From an uncultured candidate division Zixibacteria bacterium (lineage in GTDB: Bacteria; Zixibacteria; MSB-5A5; GN15; FEB-12), in contig CAWDXE010000001.1 of the NCBI GenBank assembly GCA_963806185.1, positions 384,001 to 448,000 on the forward strand: a stretch of DNA of 64,000 nucleotides, in the 5' to 3' direction. The translations under genes and the position numbers were made by a program. Below the pieces are notes generated by a model. It was not told the origin of the DNA and did not search any database. It was given only the letters and a program-made list of their open reading frames with translations. This document shows positions 11,570-63,202 of the stretch, one piece after another (within the stretch, counting starts at the first letter, position 1; every line of letters begins with the position of its first letter).

Positions 11570-11602
11570 GGCGCCTCCAGCTGGAGGCGCTTTTTTTCTT
11601 TT
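11570..11602 (+). terminator. Rho-independent terminator
   Basis: GCGCCTCCAG-CTGGAGGCGC palindrome followed by TTTTTTTCTTTT. Confidence 0.85.
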
Positions 11603-56164: not shown

Positions 56165-56190
56165 TGGTCGTATATATACATATACGACCA
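56165..56190. promoter_or_regulatory. Perfect 11-bp inverted repeat in a divergent intergenic region
   Basis: TGGTCGTATAT-atac-ATATACGACCA. Confidence 0.5.
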
Positions 56191-57020: not shown

Positions 57021-59282
57021 TTGCGAAACGGAATCGACAGCTCGATCATCAAGCGCATTGCATTTGTCGGCAATTACCTGCCGCGCCGATGCGGCATCGC
57101 CACCTTCACCACGGATTTGTGTGAGGCCATAGCGGCCGAACGTGAGGGGACAACCTGTATTGCCGTTCCCGTCAATGACACCGATGTCGGGTACGAATAC
57201 CCTGCGCGCGTTCGCTTTGAACTCTCGGAGAAGGATATCGAATCGTATCGTCGCGCCGCCGATTTCCTGAATATCAATAATGTCGATCTTGTCTGCCTGC
57301 AGCACGAATACGGCATTTTCGGGGGGCGTGCCGGCAGCCACATTCTGGCTCTCCTGCGCGAACTGCGCATGCCGATTGTCACAACCCTGCACACCATTCT
57401 GGCCGAGCCGGATGCAGATCAACGATGGGCGCTGGAGGAAATCGCGAAGCTCTCAGACCGTCTCGTTGTCATGAGTCAGCGCGGCAAGGACTTTCTGACC
57501 GATGTCTACCACGTGTCCGCAAACAAAGTCGATCTCATCCCGCACGGTATCCCGGACGTTCCATTTGTCGACCCCAGTTTTCACAAGGATCTCTTCGGCG
57601 TCGAGGGTAAAATGGTCCTGCTCAGTTTTGGACTGCTCTCCGCGAGCAAGGGGATCGAAAATGTCATTGAGGCTTTGCCGGCGATTCTCGCTTTACACCC
57701 AAACGTCGTCTACATAATTCTCGGTGAAACTCATCCGCACGTGAAGGAGACGGACGGGGAAGCATACCGGCTCTCCCTACAATGGCTCGCCCGCGAGCGA
57801 GGCGTCGAAGGTAATGTCATCTTCTACAATCGGTTCGTCAGCCTGGAAGAATTGATCGAATTCATCGGCGCGGCCGACATATATATCACTCCCTATCTCA
57901 ACAAGGCGCAGATCACCTCTGGTACCCTGGCCTATACTCTGGGCGCGGGAAAGGCGGTGATTTCCACACCCTATTGGTACGCTGAAGAAATGCTCGCCGA
58001 AGAGCGAGGCGTTCTCGTGCCGTTTCACGATCCGGCTGCGCTCGCACAAAAGGTAACCGACCTGTTGAACGACGAAGCCGGCCGCCATGCGATGCGTAAG
58101 AGGGCGTACCTGTTCGGCAGGGAAATGATTTGGCCGGAGGTGGCGCATCGTTACCGCGAAACCTTCGAGCGCGCCCGGGCTGATCGTCGGCACTTCTCCA
58201 GCCCCGGATACACTGTCAAAGCCCTCGACAAGCACCCCGGCGAACTGCCCCCAGTGAAGCTTGATCACCTGCGCAATATGACCGACGAAACAGGTATCCT
58301 CCAGCACGCCATTTTCACGATCCCCAATTATCACGAAGGATATACGACCGACGACAATACCCGTGCCCTCATCGTGAGCGCGCTGCTTGAGGATCTGGGT
58401 AATCAGGATGCCTTTGACCTGGCCTCGCGCTACCTTGCTTTCATCTGGTACGCGTACAATGCCGATACCGGGCGCTTCCGTAATTTCATGACTTATCAGC
58501 GCACCTGGTTAGAGGCGAACGGATCGGACGACAGCCACGGTCGCGCCCTATGGGCACTGGGCACTGTGCTTGGTCGATCCAATACTCCTGCGCTTCACAG
58601 CATGGCCGGATGGTTATTTGAACAGGCGCTCCCCGCCATTCTCGGCACTACCAGTCCCCGTGCGTGGGGTTTTGCCCTTATCGGCATCCATGAATATCTC
58701 CGCCGCTTCGCCGGCGACCGTCGTGCCAGCCAGGTTCAGGAAGAATTATCCCAGCGACTCCTGTCCTTGTATGAGCGTTGTCGCTCCGACGACTGGTGCT
58801 GGTACGAAGAGGGATTAACCTACTGCAATGCCGTCCTTCCTCATGCGTCGTTGATCTGCGGACAGTCCATTCAGAGCACGGCCATGATCGATGCCGGACT
58901 GGAATCACTTGCCTGGCTCAGCAATATCCAACGGGCCAGCAAAGGGGGCCACTTTGTCCCGATCGGATCCAATGGCTTCTACCGCAAGAGTGGCGAACGT
59001 GCTCGCTTTGACCAACAGCCGGTCGAGGGCCAGGCGATGGTTTCTGCCTGTCTTGAGGCGTTTCGACTTACGAAGGATATCCGCTGGCGCAAAGAAGCCC
59101 AGCGCGCCTTTGAATGGTTCCTGGGCCGCAACGACTTGAACTTATCTATCTACGACCCAACCACGGGTGGATGTCGCGATGGTTTGCATCCTGATCGCCC
59201 CAATGAAAATCTCGGCGCCGAATCTACTCTGGCCTTTCTCCAGTCCCTGCTGGAACTCCGCCTGGCAGAGAACACTTTCTAA
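57021..59282 (+). CDS. Glycosyltransferase family 4 fused to a C-terminal alpha-helical glycosidase-like domain
   Basis: YLPRRCGIATFT, QHEYGIFGG, TSGTLAY..GAGK..ISTPYW; C-domain GILQHA, GYTTDDN, FDQQP, N.GAEST. Confidence 0.88.
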   Translation: MRNGIDSSIIKRIAFVGNYLPRRCGIATFTTDLCEAIAAEREGTTCIAVPVNDTDVGYEYPARVRFELSEKDIESYRRAADFLNINNVDLVCLQHEYGIFGGRAGSHILALLRELRMPIVTTLHTILAEPDADQRWALEEIAKLSDRLVVMSQRGKDFLTDVYHVSANKVDLIPHGIPDVPFVDPSFHKDLFGVEGKMVLLSFGLLSASKGIENVIEALPAILALHPNVVYIILGETHPHVKETDGEAYRLSLQWLARERGVEGNVIFYNRFVSLEELIEFIGAADIYITPYLNKAQITSGTLAYTLGAGKAVISTPYWYAEEMLAEERGVLVPFHDPAALAQKVTDLLNDEAGRHAMRKRAYLFGREMIWPEVAHRYRETFERARADRRHFSSPGYTVKALDKHPGELPPVKLDHLRNMTDETGILQHAIFTIPNYHEGYTTDDNTRALIVSALLEDLGNQDAFDLASRYLAFIWYAYNADTGRFRNFMTYQRTWLEANGSDDSHGRALWALGTVLGRSNTPALHSMAGWLFEQALPAILGTTSPRAWGFALIGIHEYLRRFAGDRRASQVQEELSQRLLSLYERCRSDDWCWYEEGLTYCNAVLPHASLICGQSIQSTAMIDAGLESLAWLSNIQRASKGGHFVPIGSNGFYRKSGERARFDQQPVEGQAMVSACLEAFRLTKDIRWRKEAQRAFEWFLGRNDLNLSIYDPTTGGCRDGLHPDRPNENLGAESTLAFLQSLLELRLAENTF

Positions 59283-59302
59283 TCCATGGAGATGCACCCC
59301 CA

Positions 59303-60244
59303 ATGAACAATTCGCACCCCGAACTCCTTCGGCGTCATAAACTCAATCCGATTCTAACTGCCGCCAACTGGCCCTATCCCGTCAACAGCGTCTTCAATCC
59401 AGGTGCCACGTTGCTGGGCGACGGCACAACGCTGTTGCTGTGTCGGGTGGAGGATCGGCGCGGACAGTCGCACCTCTGCGCCGCCCGCTCCGCCAACGGT
59501 GTCGACGGATGGCGGATCGATCCCCAACCGACGTTGCTACCGGACCCCAGGAATTTTCCGGAGGAGATTTGGGGTATCGAGGACCCGAGAATCACCTTCG
59601 TCCCGGAACTCGACCAATACGCCGTAGTGTATACTGCTTTCACTCGCGATGGACCAGGGGTGGCCTTGGCAACAACTGAAGACTTCCAGACATTCAAGCG
59701 CTTTGGGGTCATCATGTCCCCCGAGGACAAAGATGCGACTCTCTTGCCGCATCGTATCGACGGCCGCTGGGCTCTGATTCACCGTCCAATCAGCTCACCA
59801 AGAGCTCACATGTGGATATCGTATTCGCCCGATCTGACTCACTGGGGAGGTCACAAGCTCATGCTTGAAGCTCGACGGGGCGGATGGTGGGATGCAAACA
59901 AGATAGGTCTTTCGCCGCCACCGATAGAAACTCCGCAAGGCTGGCTGGTGATGTACCACGGTGTGCGATACACTGCCGCCGGCGCCATATATCGCCTCGG
60001 TCTTGCACTCTTCGACCTGAAGGCGCCCGAGGTATGTCTCAAGCGCTGCAATCAGTGGGTCTTCGGCCCCGAAGAACCGTACGAATTACATGGTGATGTA
60101 GGAAATGTTGTATTCCCCTGCGGCTATACCATTCTCCCCGACGGCGACACTGTCCACTTCTATTATGGCGCTGCCGACACGAGCATCGCGCTTGCGACGG
60201 GCAGTATACGTGCTATGCTCGATTGGCTGGACAAAGAAGATTGA
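59303..60244 (+). CDS. GH130-family glycosidase/phosphorylase
   Basis: NPIL, VFNPGA, EDPRIT, KDA, HRP, YHGV, GDVGNVVFPCG, YYGAADT. Confidence 0.88.
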   Translation: MNNSHPELLRRHKLNPILTAANWPYPVNSVFNPGATLLGDGTTLLLCRVEDRRGQSHLCAARSANGVDGWRIDPQPTLLPDPRNFPEEIWGIEDPRITFVPELDQYAVVYTAFTRDGPGVALATTEDFQTFKRFGVIMSPEDKDATLLPHRIDGRWALIHRPISSPRAHMWISYSPDLTHWGGHKLMLEARRGGWWDANKIGLSPPPIETPQGWLVMYHGVRYTAAGAIYRLGLALFDLKAPEVCLKRCNQWVFGPEEPYELHGDVGNVVFPCGYTILPDGDTVHFYYGAADTSIALATGSIRAMLDWLDKED

Positions 60245-60771: not shown

Positions 60772-60827
60772 GTTTCTTGAGCGCTTACGCATATATTTGC
60801 GGTTATGCGTGAGCGCTCACGTATAAG
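60772..60827 (+). promoter_or_regulatory. Tandem palindromic operator-like sites with a rightward promoter
   Basis: TGAGCGCTTACGCATA at 60778-60793 and TATGCGTGAGCGCTCACGTATA at 60804-60825; TATAAG at 60822-60827. Confidence 0.6.
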
Positions 60828-61078
60828 GTGTGAATCTTGAGAGCCGCTGCCAAACTGAAAGGGGTCGCACATGGATCAGCGGGCAACATGAAAACTAGAG
60901 ACTCCGTTACCACCGGTGCCAGCCGGGGACTGGAGATTGGGTAATGAGTCCTTCCATGAACGGCCGCTGAGAAAGCTATTCTTCACTGCCCGACAACAAC
61001 TTGGCGCCCTGTCTCAATGAGCTCGTCGCGCAACACCAAGGGTGGCAGGGAAGTTGAGAAACAGTCTAACGAGCGGGG

Positions 61079-62035
61079 ATGGTCGGAATGGGAAACAGGA
61101 CAGTTTTATTTGGGTGCACTGTCGCCATCGTGATTTGTTCGGTTCTGCCAGAAGCAGGATTGCGCGCAGCGATATCCACGCCAACCTCAGTCACGCTCAC
61201 CTGGACCGCGCCCGGAGATGATCACATTACTGGGCGGGCGTCAACTTACGATATCCGGTACTCCCTCGCGACAATCACCAGCGCCAATTGGGCCAACGCT
61301 GCCAGAGTGACTGGCATCCCTGCTCCGAAGGTGGCTGGTAGTGCTGAATCGTTCGAGGTCACGGGTCTGATCTCAAACACGGCTTACTACTTTGCGATGA
61401 GAGTCGGCGACGAAGTCCCCAATTGGTCGGCAATGTCCAACGTGATCAAGAAATCGACCTCGAAGGAGACCACGCCGCCTTCTGCGATCGCCAATTTGGC
61501 GGCCGGAAATGCCACAATTTCAAGCGTCGCCCTTACCTGGACTGCGCCGGGGGATGACGGCACCATCGGAACCGCCACCACCTATGATATCCGCTATGCG
61601 ACAGCCGCGATCACGACGGCCAACTGGGCGTCAGCCACCAAGGTGACAGGCATCCCAGCACCCAAGGTAACCGGCAGCGCCGAGAGCTTCACGATCGCCG
61701 GCCTGAGTTCCTCGACCAAATATTACGTTGCAGTCAAGACGGCTGATGAGGTTCCCAACTGGTCGTCACTCTCAAACGTACCTACGGTGACGACTTGCGG
61801 CGGCTTTTGTATCGGCACGTCAGGGAATGTCGACTGTTCGCCTGACGAGTCAGTGGATATCGTAGATCTAACGACCTTGCTCAGGTACCTGTTCGCCACA
61901 TCAGATACCGCTTGTATCTGCCTCGCCGAAGCCAATATCGATGTTGACCTCGCCAACAGCGTAGACATAGCCGACCTCTCACGACTGATCGACTACTTGT
62001 TCCTCTCACATAATCCGCTGTCCGCCTGCCTATGA
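61079..62035 (+). CDS. Secreted protein with two fibronectin type III repeats and C-terminal dockerin-like domain
   Basis: Two LTWTAPGDD...YDIRY...NW...DEVPNWS..SN repeats; C.G..GNVDC..D..VDI.DL duplicated motif. Confidence 0.88.
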   Translation: MVGMGNRTVLFGCTVAIVICSVLPEAGLRAAISTPTSVTLTWTAPGDDHITGRASTYDIRYSLATITSANWANAARVTGIPAPKVAGSAESFEVTGLISNTAYYFAMRVGDEVPNWSAMSNVIKKSTSKETTPPSAIANLAAGNATISSVALTWTAPGDDGTIGTATTYDIRYATAAITTANWASATKVTGIPAPKVTGSAESFTIAGLSSSTKYYVAVKTADEVPNWSSLSNVPTVTTCGGFCIGTSGNVDCSPDESVDIVDLTTLLRYLFATSDTACICLAEANIDVDLANSVDIADLSRLIDYLFLSHNPLSACL

Positions 62036-62161
62036 CCCTTGCCTACAGGCGGCTGAACGCGCAACACACCCGAGGGTACGAAGCCTCGTCTGACGGGCTT
62101 ACTTCCATTGGTAAGTCTGTGCCTGGTTGGAATTGACGAGTCAATGTGTCGGACTCGTCTG

Positions 62162-62407
62162 AAAAAACAACAGGAGTGGTGGAGGGGGATACCCGACTAA
62201 ATCGTCAGGCGGCTGGTAGACCAGCGCACACCACCCCTGTATATCCAAAGTGTTGCATGCATCCTCTGCCCACACCCCCTCGCGATCCCGGGAGAGTCCG
62301 TTCGGAAAAGGAGGACAGCCGCCGGGCAGGTGTCTTGTGTGCGAGACTGGTCCACCCGGTGGCTGCTCACGGGAAGTCTTTTTCCCAAAGGCTGTTGTCC
62401 CAATCTC
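62162..62407 (-). ncRNA. Candidate structured non-coding RNA (about 245 nt)
   Basis: Lies between a sigma70-like promoter and a terminator-like stem plus T-tract; several nested stems; no convincing ORF. Confidence 0.4.
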
Positions 62408-62412
62408 AAATC

Positions 62413-62441
62413 ATTATACGTGAGCGGTCACGCATAGTCCA
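62413..62441 (-). promoter_or_regulatory. Sigma70 promoter with palindromic operator in the spacer
   Basis: Minus strand TGGACT-N17-TATAAT; spacer ATGCGTGACCGCTCACG. Confidence 0.65.
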
Positions 62442-62645: not shown

Positions 62646-63086
62646 TCATTGAGGCTTCTTCTTCTTTGCCCACCGAGCCAACGCCGCCTTTCGTGCGGCA
62701 TCGCTCCGTTGCCTTTTCGTCAGAGTCTTCGCTCGGGCTTTGCCACCCTTGAGGCCGCCCAGTCTTCCCAAAAAGACCGCGGCGGGGTTTTTAGTCGAAC
62801 TACCGGAGGCGGGTCCATTTGAAGGCGATTCACTTGCAGGTGCGTCCGTATCGGTCGATACCGACTCATCCGTTGAAGTGGATTTCCCCGGCGGATTTCC
62901 AATAGCCGATTCATCGGCAGTAGTTTTGGAGGGTTTGCCGTTGGGATCGCTGGGAACTGTCCCGTCCTGAGGCCTCTCCTTGGCGGTCTCGTCCGCCCGC
63001 TGTCCATTTGCGGTTCGATCTGCCAGTGAATTCGCCAACTCGTCGTGGTCAGCATTTTCTGCGGATGGCCGCTCTTCCGTGCTCAT
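62646..63086 (-). CDS. Protein with disordered N-terminus and basic C-terminal KNPAAV.LGRLGGLKGGKARA motif
   Basis: C-terminal KNPAAVFLGRLGGLKGGKARAKTLTKRQRSDAARKAALARW. Confidence 0.8.
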   Translation of the reverse strand: MSTEERPSAENADHDELANSLADRTANGQRADETAKERPQDGTVPSDPNGKPSKTTADESAIGNPPGKSTSTDESVSTDTDAPASESPSNGPASGSSTKNPAAVFLGRLGGLKGGKARAKTLTKRQRSDAARKAALARWAKKKKPQ

Positions 63087-63173: not shown

Positions 63174-63202
63174 AACATAGTCACCAGTAACTCATCTGTC
63201 AA
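63174..63202 (-). promoter_or_regulatory. Sigma70 promoter
   Basis: Minus strand TTGACA-N17-TATGTT upstream of the 62646-63086 gene. Confidence 0.65.

Follow-up and report, generated by a model that had tools for sequence, protein, structure and literature searches.

Introduction

The fim switch and the shufflons are invertible promoter or gene cassettes, and IS1-family elements that carry passenger genes reportedly fall under the tIS concept of Siguier and colleagues. In IS1, according to passages of one published account (PMC12903888), InsA is the N-terminal part of the frameshift transposase, represses the promoter, and binds both this promoter and the two terminal repeats. Passages of a second account (PMC8987985) give Hin as an example of an invertible cassette and present the exaptation of mobile-element parts in prokaryotes as an established theme, with cases in defence, recombinases, replicons and secretion. 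Here we examine a segment of a 64,000-nucleotide (nt) stretch of DNA, hereafter the window, from an uncultured candidate division Zixibacteria bacterium (assembly GCA_963806185.1, contig CAWDXE010000001.1, positions 384,001 to 448,000). In this segment a first-pass annotation had noticed three copies of a 22-base-pair (bp) palindrome, the two strong ones lying in convergent promoters on either side of a gene for a protein with Fn3 domains. Judging from sequence comparison, the segment descends from an IS1-family transposon with passenger genes, of which two parts are still present, namely the gene of a small basic protein, which we call KNPAAV after its motif, and the transposase promoter with its palindrome. 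The explanation that we favour, with moderate confidence, is that the palindromes are operators of the KNPAAV protein acting as a repressor, and that they were reused after the transposase had been lost.

Results

The palindromes and their promoters

All three copies of the palindrome were confirmed at the positions first proposed (Table 1). The strong copies each fill the spacer of a promoter, P1 reading leftward and P2 rightward, and the centre of the weak copy is 32 bp from that of the left strong copy. In 100 first-order shuffles of the window, no 22-bp palindrome arose that recurred with three or fewer mismatches. A scan of the whole source genome (G000; 3.65 Mb, 82% complete) found three or fewer mismatches in the two strong copies alone, the next matches having five, and a weight matrix built from relatives scores these two at 46 and 35 bits and the next-best site in the genome at 16. 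With two strong sites only, a genome-wide regulon of the palindrome was rejected. The palindrome is even, with an invariant central CG and without an asymmetric core. A dif/Xer or lox-type site, suggested by the inverted pair at 60778-60819, was likewise set aside, since the pair proved to be the double site conserved before a promoter, with a spacing that varies from 30 to 33 bp among relatives. The window contains two further 22-bp palindromes in which at least 10 of 11 positions pair, at 56167-56188, in the start region of an RRM-domain gene, and at 11570-11591.

As to the two promoters of the first-pass annotation, the leftward one, P1, passes a sigma-70 consensus scan with 10 of 12 hexamer positions, whereas the hexamers of the rightward one, P2 (GCGGTT-17-TATAAG), fail it. 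The corresponding promoter in L203, a metagenome orthologue of the window's P2-leader-Fn3 unit, reads TCGACT-17-TATAAT. Poor -35 boxes are found in several P2 copies (GCGGTT, TAGCCT, TAGTCC, TAGTCT), both sites nonetheless being retained. The two promoters are indeed convergent, but rather than facing each other across one gene they likely serve two targets, P1 a structured RNA and P2 the Fn3 gene.

A transposase-free module in related genomes

Among 285 genomes of the phylum, the site pattern occurs in 11 and a reversed control pattern in none. The KNPAAV gene is present in all 11 site-bearing genomes, against 49 of 285 overall, and a twelfth module (G189) was found through the KNPAAV protein; five metagenome loci are further pieces of the module. 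What the window and 11 related genomes have retained is one to three promoter-site units together with the KNPAAV gene. The usual unit consists of a weak site, 8-11 nt, and a strong site between the -35 and -10 boxes. Inspection by eye found the upstream site, which the pattern used in the search did not include, complete in 17 of 19 promoter units, P1 of the window being one of the two exceptions. Conservation of the sites reaches 0.93 against 0.44 in the flanks, a contrast that is partly circular, as the units were found by the pattern.

The arrangement of these parts varies considerably. Four genomes (G097, G069, G064, G067) have the tandem order KNPAAV - P1 - RNA - P2 - Fn3, while the source genome and G184 are convergent; in G035 and G036 the Fn3 gene stands upstream, without a site, and G056 reads KNPAAV - P - Fn3. 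In G068 two promoter units are 18 kb apart, G063 is split over contigs, and G189 has no Fn3 gene on the fetched contig. The promoter copies thus run head to tail in four genomes, are 18 kb apart in one, single in three and facing in two. Since inverting 60804-62436 moves the gene and the RNA together and leaves the promoters convergent, it cannot yield the tandem order. The comparison with related genomes therefore shows a module conserved in 12 genomes in several layouts that are not flips between sites, with G056 ambiguous, and the convergent layout is one of several arrangements and no switch. Two read runs (share 0.05) covered neither palindrome junction.

None of the module loci examined yielded a transposase gene or a terminal repeat. 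In the source genome, 82% complete, neither tblastn nor a profile detected a transposase of the IS1-type family, and near its module the terminal repeat of the parent transposons, GGTAGTGGGTCAGTTTGA, has no match with four or fewer mismatches; nor does the repeat stand at the end position in 14 module loci. Two near-perfect matches to it elsewhere in the source genome overlap ordinary-looking reading-frame ends, with no transposase nearby. A full transposase occurs elsewhere in one of the 11 site-bearing genomes, and fragments in two.

Remnants of the transposase are nevertheless still legible behind some module promoters. With a matrix built from intact elements, 5' remnants were found behind P1 in G184, G036 and G189 (p 0.0005 against shuffles) and behind P2 in G184 (p 0.003) and G068 (p 0.0015), and a matrix of decayed copies adds remnants behind P2 of G097 and in G056. 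In the window the signal behind P1 is weak (p = 0.0085, uncorrected, in 19 tests), and behind P2 none is detectable by matrix against shuffles. In G184 (C27:32252-33045; L030:6252-7046) the P1 unit, a decayed transposase start and the RNA are tandemly duplicated, 739 bp apart.

The parent IS1-family transposons

The transposase of the parent elements has 280 amino acids (aa) and gives weak matches to DDE_Tnp_IS240 and DDE_Tnp_IS1. GenBank labels the parent genes 'IS1 family transposase', with an upstream 'histone H1' that is a KNPAAV homologue (CP050295.1). The ends of these elements are an 18-bp inverted repeat, the one given above, which differs from the palindrome, and perfect 8-bp target duplications flank 14 of the 16 two-ended loci (20 fetched). 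The elements run repeat - promoter - KNPAAV - variable cargo - (double) site and promoter - transposase - repeat, and a further site lies at the promoter or the start codon of KNPAAV, a gene that in most intact elements stands separately, 0.5-3 kb upstream of the transposase. As this order places the palindrome between the ends, it is internal, not terminal. The cargo includes Panacea, BRO, P63C and tRNA-like genes. Our set of transposase loci comprises the best 80 of at least 589 confirmed, from many phyla, of which 66 were typed; a KNPAAV-type gene lies within 4 kb of the transposase in 68 of these best 80. On this comparison, the site and promoter of the module originate in an IS1-family transposon, the transposase and ends having been lost, KNPAAV kept, and new genes placed downstream.

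Several further features of the parent elements were observed. In L084-L089, one or two tRNA-like genes often stand directly before the transposase promoter, some with odd anticodons or a reduced D-arm. One element, nested and with an internal deletion, in G121:C71 (L091), joins the start of KNPAAV to the end of the transposase and has three terminal repeats. In a subset of L119-L179 a second motif, AAACTGA-N5/6-ATGCTTGAC, was seen by eye before the transposase promoter, and resembles the inner part of the terminal repeat.

The palindrome and the KNPAAV protein occur together

Using ATGCKTRANCGNTYAMGCAT with up to four mismatches as the general site (background 50/4000), we found the site at the transposase promoter in 34 of the 43 elements with the full NPAAV-LGR-GG motif and in 5 of the 23 without it, and at the promoter of the small gene in 34/43 and 3/23, respectively. 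The site of the small gene lies over the start codon in 23 cases and in the promoter in 14, and in 13 of the latter 14 the M-x-x-R-S start of the protein is gone, which indicates that the DNA and not the peptide is conserved. Its position in intact elements shifts among the start codon, the spacer and the -35 box; repressor sites can shift position in promoters. On the transposase tree, both sites are gained or lost together in 5.7 of 6 independent pairs (median p 0.03).

Exact matches to the site in metagenomes gave 32 loci, 20 of them with a KNPAAV gene and 12 with an IS1-type transposase, while other sites precede a serine recombinase (three near-identical loci), DDE_Tnp_1 transposases (two Pfam-confirmed) or open reading frames (ORFs) without known function. 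With the KNPAAV gene more frequent than the transposase, and the recombinases varied, the small protein is the common partner of the site. Some of these partners are the C-terminal domain of KNPAAV alone, the part retained in the window. The loci at which the palindrome occurs with a serine recombinase, DDE_Tnp_1 transposases, a divergent IS1-type gene or unassigned ORFs include L187:2235-3225, L218:2002-2979, L213, L204:2487-3275, L191, L200, L207 and L212, most of them with a KNPAAV gene.

The small basic protein

The KNPAAV family is defined by the motif KNPAAV-LGRLGGLKGG-ARA...RW and has at least 7,944 sequence relatives; the source genome has one copy, whose N-terminal part is an expanded acidic linker rich in Ser and Thr. 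A Pfam search with 68 members at E <= 0.1 returned 14 families, each in at most 2 of the 68, and KGG, the stress motif that we take to be PF10685, was not among them. Sequence searches of the PDB gave no hit, and in the ESM Atlas the protein fell only into clusters named 'histone H1 family' or hypothetical. AlphaFold2 predicts four helices with a predicted local distance difference test (pLDDT) of 85 and a predicted template modelling score (pTM) of 0.38, and comparison of this model with 48,161 chains found none at Z >= 5. Given this lack of a family or fold match and the pTM of 0.38, DNA binding by KNPAAV is argued from context. A hint in the same direction comes from two P63C proteins (L135:2838-3884, L089:4546-5640), whose N-terminus is the KGG-ARA-RW motif in one case and a Cro-like helix-turn-helix in the other; that the KNPAAV-type motif can fill the slot of a helix-turn-helix speaks for KNPAAV as the binder. 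A literature search, with ISfinder, TnCentral and subscription journals outside its scope, found no paper on the KNPAAV protein or the palindrome.

Over 41 codons of the KNPAAV domain in 12 modules, the proportion of nonsynonymous differences (pN) is 0.09 against 0.75 for synonymous ones (pS), from 66 non-independent pairs. The synonymous sites are saturated across modules and the protein domain is held, a pattern which indicates that the gene is kept under purifying selection in the module. In a tree, the 14 module KNPAAV genes lie on one side of a branch (83/83, not starred) and 25 element genes on the other. The module genes share as derived traits the acidic repeat linker, a leadered promoter without an operator, and the lack of a left repeat. 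Their linker is expanded by a 78-nt repeat (26 aa, ANEQP-EE-VSGDST; for example L061:150-370 and L037:8585-8861), which was also seen behind P1 in five genomes and in 0 of 100 intact-element loci. The stretch behind P1 of relatives that the hairpin in the P1 leader of the window resembles stems from this linker repeat, and a profile of the repeat, run on the window, did not detect the hairpin.

The genes behind P1 and P2

The RNA downstream of P1 is the second copy of a 70-nt three-way-junction RNA present in 208 of the 285 genomes, in nearly all of them as a single copy. Its native copy in the source genome lies at C7:716615-716683 (L040:6616-6684), upstream of what we take to be two sensor-kinase-like genes and often, presumably, after a thioredoxin-reductase-like gene. 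Extra copies were found in nine module genomes, further double hits in G111 and G171 being native-site copies at contig ends. The copy in the window has retained its fold (fold z = -5.5); covariation is thin, with 3 of 20 pairs changed on both sides. A sigma-54-like GGCAY-N5-TTGC stands upstream of 10 of 13 native copies and of 0 of 10 module copies. A search of Rfam 15 gave no match. The opposite strand has what we take to be a SAM-I-like look, an identity set aside since both the U-rich tail and a U-G pair that never varies point to the other strand. The signal recognition particle (SRP) RNA was rejected as well, since it was found elsewhere in the source genome. A search for 6S RNA had no match anywhere in that genome, so that this test leaves a divergent 6S RNA possible.

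The 'Fn3-dockerin cassette' of the first-pass annotation was borne out as to Fn3, for which the Pfam match is firm (62.3 bits), but Dockerin_1, at 17.3 bits, stays below the cut-off of 22.9, and the bracketed stretch also holds the structured RNA. The protein is likely secreted or surface-bound. Homologues of it were found in 10 of 10 module neighbourhoods compared. The leader of its gene shares partial homology with what follows P1 in G035 and G036 (E 4e-5 to L032).

Table 1 Features of the palindrome segment in the window
Feature	Position	Strand	Remarks
Weaker palindrome copy	60772-60793	.	Candidate upstream operator of rightward promoter P2; 5 mismatches on the minus strand
Promoter P2, -35 GCGGTT, 17 nt, -10 TATAAG	60799-60827	+	Weakened copy of the transposase promoter; points at the Fn3 gene
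Strong 22-bp palindrome TATGCGTGAGCGCTCACGTATA	60804-60825	.	Candidate operator; fills the P2 spacer
Fn3-gene leader, ~250 nt	60828-61078	+	Conserved with L203 (E 8e-16)
318-aa protein: hydrophobic N-terminus, two Fn3 domains, C-terminal dockerin-like domain	61079-62035	+	
Structured RNA, second copy	62170-62240 (core 62173-62237)	-	Downstream of P1; closing stem, two hairpins, CCCCCUCC strand, U-rich tail
Hairpin in the P1 leader	62313-62368	-	Resembles a stretch behind P1 in relatives (E 5e-4 to L065; 0.004 to L199 and L061)
Promoter P1, TGGACT-17-TATAAT	62413-62441	-	Copy of the transposase promoter; points at the 70-nt RNA
Strong 22-bp palindrome, reverse complement of TATGCGTGAGCGCTCACGTATA, 1 mismatch	62415-62436	.	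Candidate operator; fills the P1 spacer
Decayed upstream operator of P1	62447-62468	-	Half-site CTTTCTTGA alone left
146-aa KNPAAV/KGG small basic protein	62646-63086	-	Candidate operator-binding repressor; conserved domain 62649-62792
KNPAAV-gene promoter, TTGACA-17-TATGTT	63174-63202	-	No operator and no terminal repeat upstream

Among the eight nearby ORFs scanned, which include a glycosyltransferase, a GH130 protein, the Fn3 and KNPAAV proteins and a protein with a PsbP-like end, none is a recombinase, no genome-wide search for recombinases having been made. The non-coding stretch of ~520 nt upstream of P2 (60245-60770) is unmatched in the 18 module loci compared (best E 0.27). The module is situated inside an accessory island common to relatives (window 57021-60244 and G000:C1:447268-459666), with genes for a glycosyltransferase and GH130 and for what we take to be beta-barrel-, DUF883-, BON- and peptidase-like proteins, each type of island gene lying near 2 to 6 of 10 modules. 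Within a larger island the module could still be mobile.

Discussion

Proposed repression by KNPAAV and its alternatives

In the mechanism that we consider, the C-terminal helices of KNPAAV would bind the palindrome, two sites spaced by three helical turns being occupied by a pair, and the binding would block RNA polymerase. After the decay of the transposase, the promoter-operator would have been duplicated and placed before new genes. The KNPAAV gene, without an operator of its own, would be expressed steadily and hold down the promoters of the RNA copy and the Fn3 gene, until something released them, perhaps, to speculate further, by way of the new acidic linker. The shared operator for a regulator, one of the two suggestions of the first-pass annotation, thus finds support, and the candidate regulator, KNPAAV, is encoded just outside the coordinates considered there.

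A number of observations weigh against this explanation. When kinship is allowed for, the association of KNPAAV type with the site is not significant (2.6 to 3.2 of 6 pairs, p 0.25), and both the site pattern and its cut-off were chosen after the data had been seen; the contrast in site conservation (0.93 against 0.44) suffers from its partial circularity. KNPAAV itself is without a Pfam family, a solved structure or a fold match, with a pTM of 0.38. Twelve of the 32 metagenome loci have no KNPAAV gene on the fetched DNA, which is short in most cases; L198 has none across 2.4 kb upstream, and in L189 and L197 the gene found upstream is an XRE-peptidase gene. The consensus hexamers of P2 and most of the upstream site of P1 are gone from the window, a state that decay would fit as well. 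Finally, with the source genome 82% complete, a transposase or another regulator may be missing from the assembly.

Some of these observations could also mean that the sites are operators of another protein, be it a host protein, a cargo regulator or the N-terminus of the transposase acting in trans, and that KNPAAV merely travels along. The missing significance on independent pairs, the two metagenome loci with an XRE-peptidase gene in place of KNPAAV, and the module genome with a full transposase elsewhere would all be accommodated. We nonetheless regard this as unlikely. The same site is found across many phyla and before three unrelated recombinase families, and no column of the transposase matches the KNPAAV motif as a predictor of sites (p 8e-4 for the best of 283 columns, against 1e-6). 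As for host regulators, the absence of further sites in the source genome leaves no host regulon; a LacI-family regulator was rejected because PF00356 is absent from this 82%-complete genome, and a two-component stress regulator because only 2 of 10 modules have a response-regulator-like ORF nearby.

One could also speculate that origin and binder are as we propose, and that KNPAAV activates, or both activates and represses, from the upstream site and the spacer. The P2 copies that keep both sites despite poor -35 boxes are what activation would lead one to expect, and steady repression by a KNPAAV gene without its own operator and without a known inducer is hard to rationalise. We consider it quite unlikely, however, for the shifting of the site among start codon, spacer and -35 box in intact elements suits a repressor, and the spacer of 17 nt is unlike the long one of MerR-type promoters, at which activation makes use of such a spacer.

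That the module is a relic, its sites being what is left of transposon promoters that are decaying slowly and now do little in the source genome, is suggested by the degraded -35 and -10 boxes of P2 and upstream site of P1, and by a module that is patchy (12 of 285 genomes), variably arranged and housed in a shared accessory island. Yet the strong sites are one mismatch apart while the transposase sequence directly behind them has decayed nearly or wholly beyond detection, the KNPAAV domain is held despite saturated synonymous sites, and the RNA copy keeps its fold, all of which makes this explanation rather improbable. Highly improbable, lastly, is the other suggestion of the first-pass annotation, that the palindromes serve recombination in, or form the ends of, an invertible or non-autonomous Fn3 cassette: the inverted strong copies around the gene, the convergent layout of G184 and the resemblance of G056 to one side of an inverted product speak for it, but the parent elements end in another sequence, the 18-bp repeat with its 8-bp duplications, which is absent from the module, the palindrome being internal and at promoters; a flip of 60804-62436 cannot give the tandem order of four genomes; the units of G068 are 18 kb apart; G056 could equally be a deletion between tandem copies; and there is neither an asymmetric site core nor a recombinase among the adjacent ORFs. 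The mobile-element origin that it implied does hold, in that the segment is transposon-derived, though not by way of terminal or invertible sites.

Taking repression by KNPAAV as the working explanation, one can extend it, more tentatively, beyond this locus. The KNPAAV ('histone H1') proteins might be an undescribed class of minimal helical DNA-binding repressors, forming with their operator a portable unit among unrelated transposases and recombinases. This unit could have been domesticated in one Zixibacteria lineage as a small regulon, in which a repressor that is made steadily and bears an acidic repeat linker governs a surface Fn3 protein as well as the second copy of an RNA, giving that RNA, whose native copy has a sigma-54-type promoter, a second input. 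We hold this extension to be possible, with less confidence than the repression itself. If it is true, the control circuit of a transposon has outlived the transposon and been rewired to other genes. A large unannotated family mislabelled 'histone H1' would gain a precise candidate binding site, reduced to a 45-residue domain and 54 bp of DNA, and the transposase-free module constitutes a natural experiment in which the small protein and the transposase can be told apart as binders. The analysis also brings to light an uncatalogued structured RNA that 208 of the 285 genomes of this little-studied phylum contain and Rfam lacks. The feature in the window is no new type of invertible element.

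Comparison with known systems

With Hin/hix, the fim switch and the shufflons, the window has in common that inverted copies of a site bracket the gene of a surface protein; it differs from them in having no adjacent recombinase and no asymmetric core, and in that the layouts of relatives are not inversion products. The operators of the LacI family are, like the site of the window, even palindromes with an invariant central CG, the symmetric lac operator having the core GTGAGCGCTCAC, and the N-x-x-A-x-x-L helix start of KNPAAV bears what we take to be a likeness to the LacI hinge motif; the source genome, however, has no LacI-family gene, and KNPAAV no sequence or fold match to LacI proteins. 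As in the exapted mobile-element parts described in the passages of PMC8987985, a component of the module has been kept under purifying selection after mobility was lost, but among the cases in these passages there is no transposon repressor that was reused, with its operator, for host genes. The likeness to InsA of IS1 lies in an IS1-family element that encodes a small protein repressing the transposase promoter, as the placement of the sites here suggests, and in 8-bp duplications. KNPAAV, however, is unrelated to InsA and encoded by a gene of its own at the element's other end, its site is an internal palindrome and not the terminal repeat, and in the window the transposase and the ends are missing. 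The IS1-family elements with passenger genes (CP050295.1) have the same small gene family, promoter and site as the module. Compared with them, the module lacks the transposase, the terminal repeat and the operator of the small gene; its linker is expanded, its promoter-operators are duplicated, and it includes an Fn3 gene and the copy of a host RNA.

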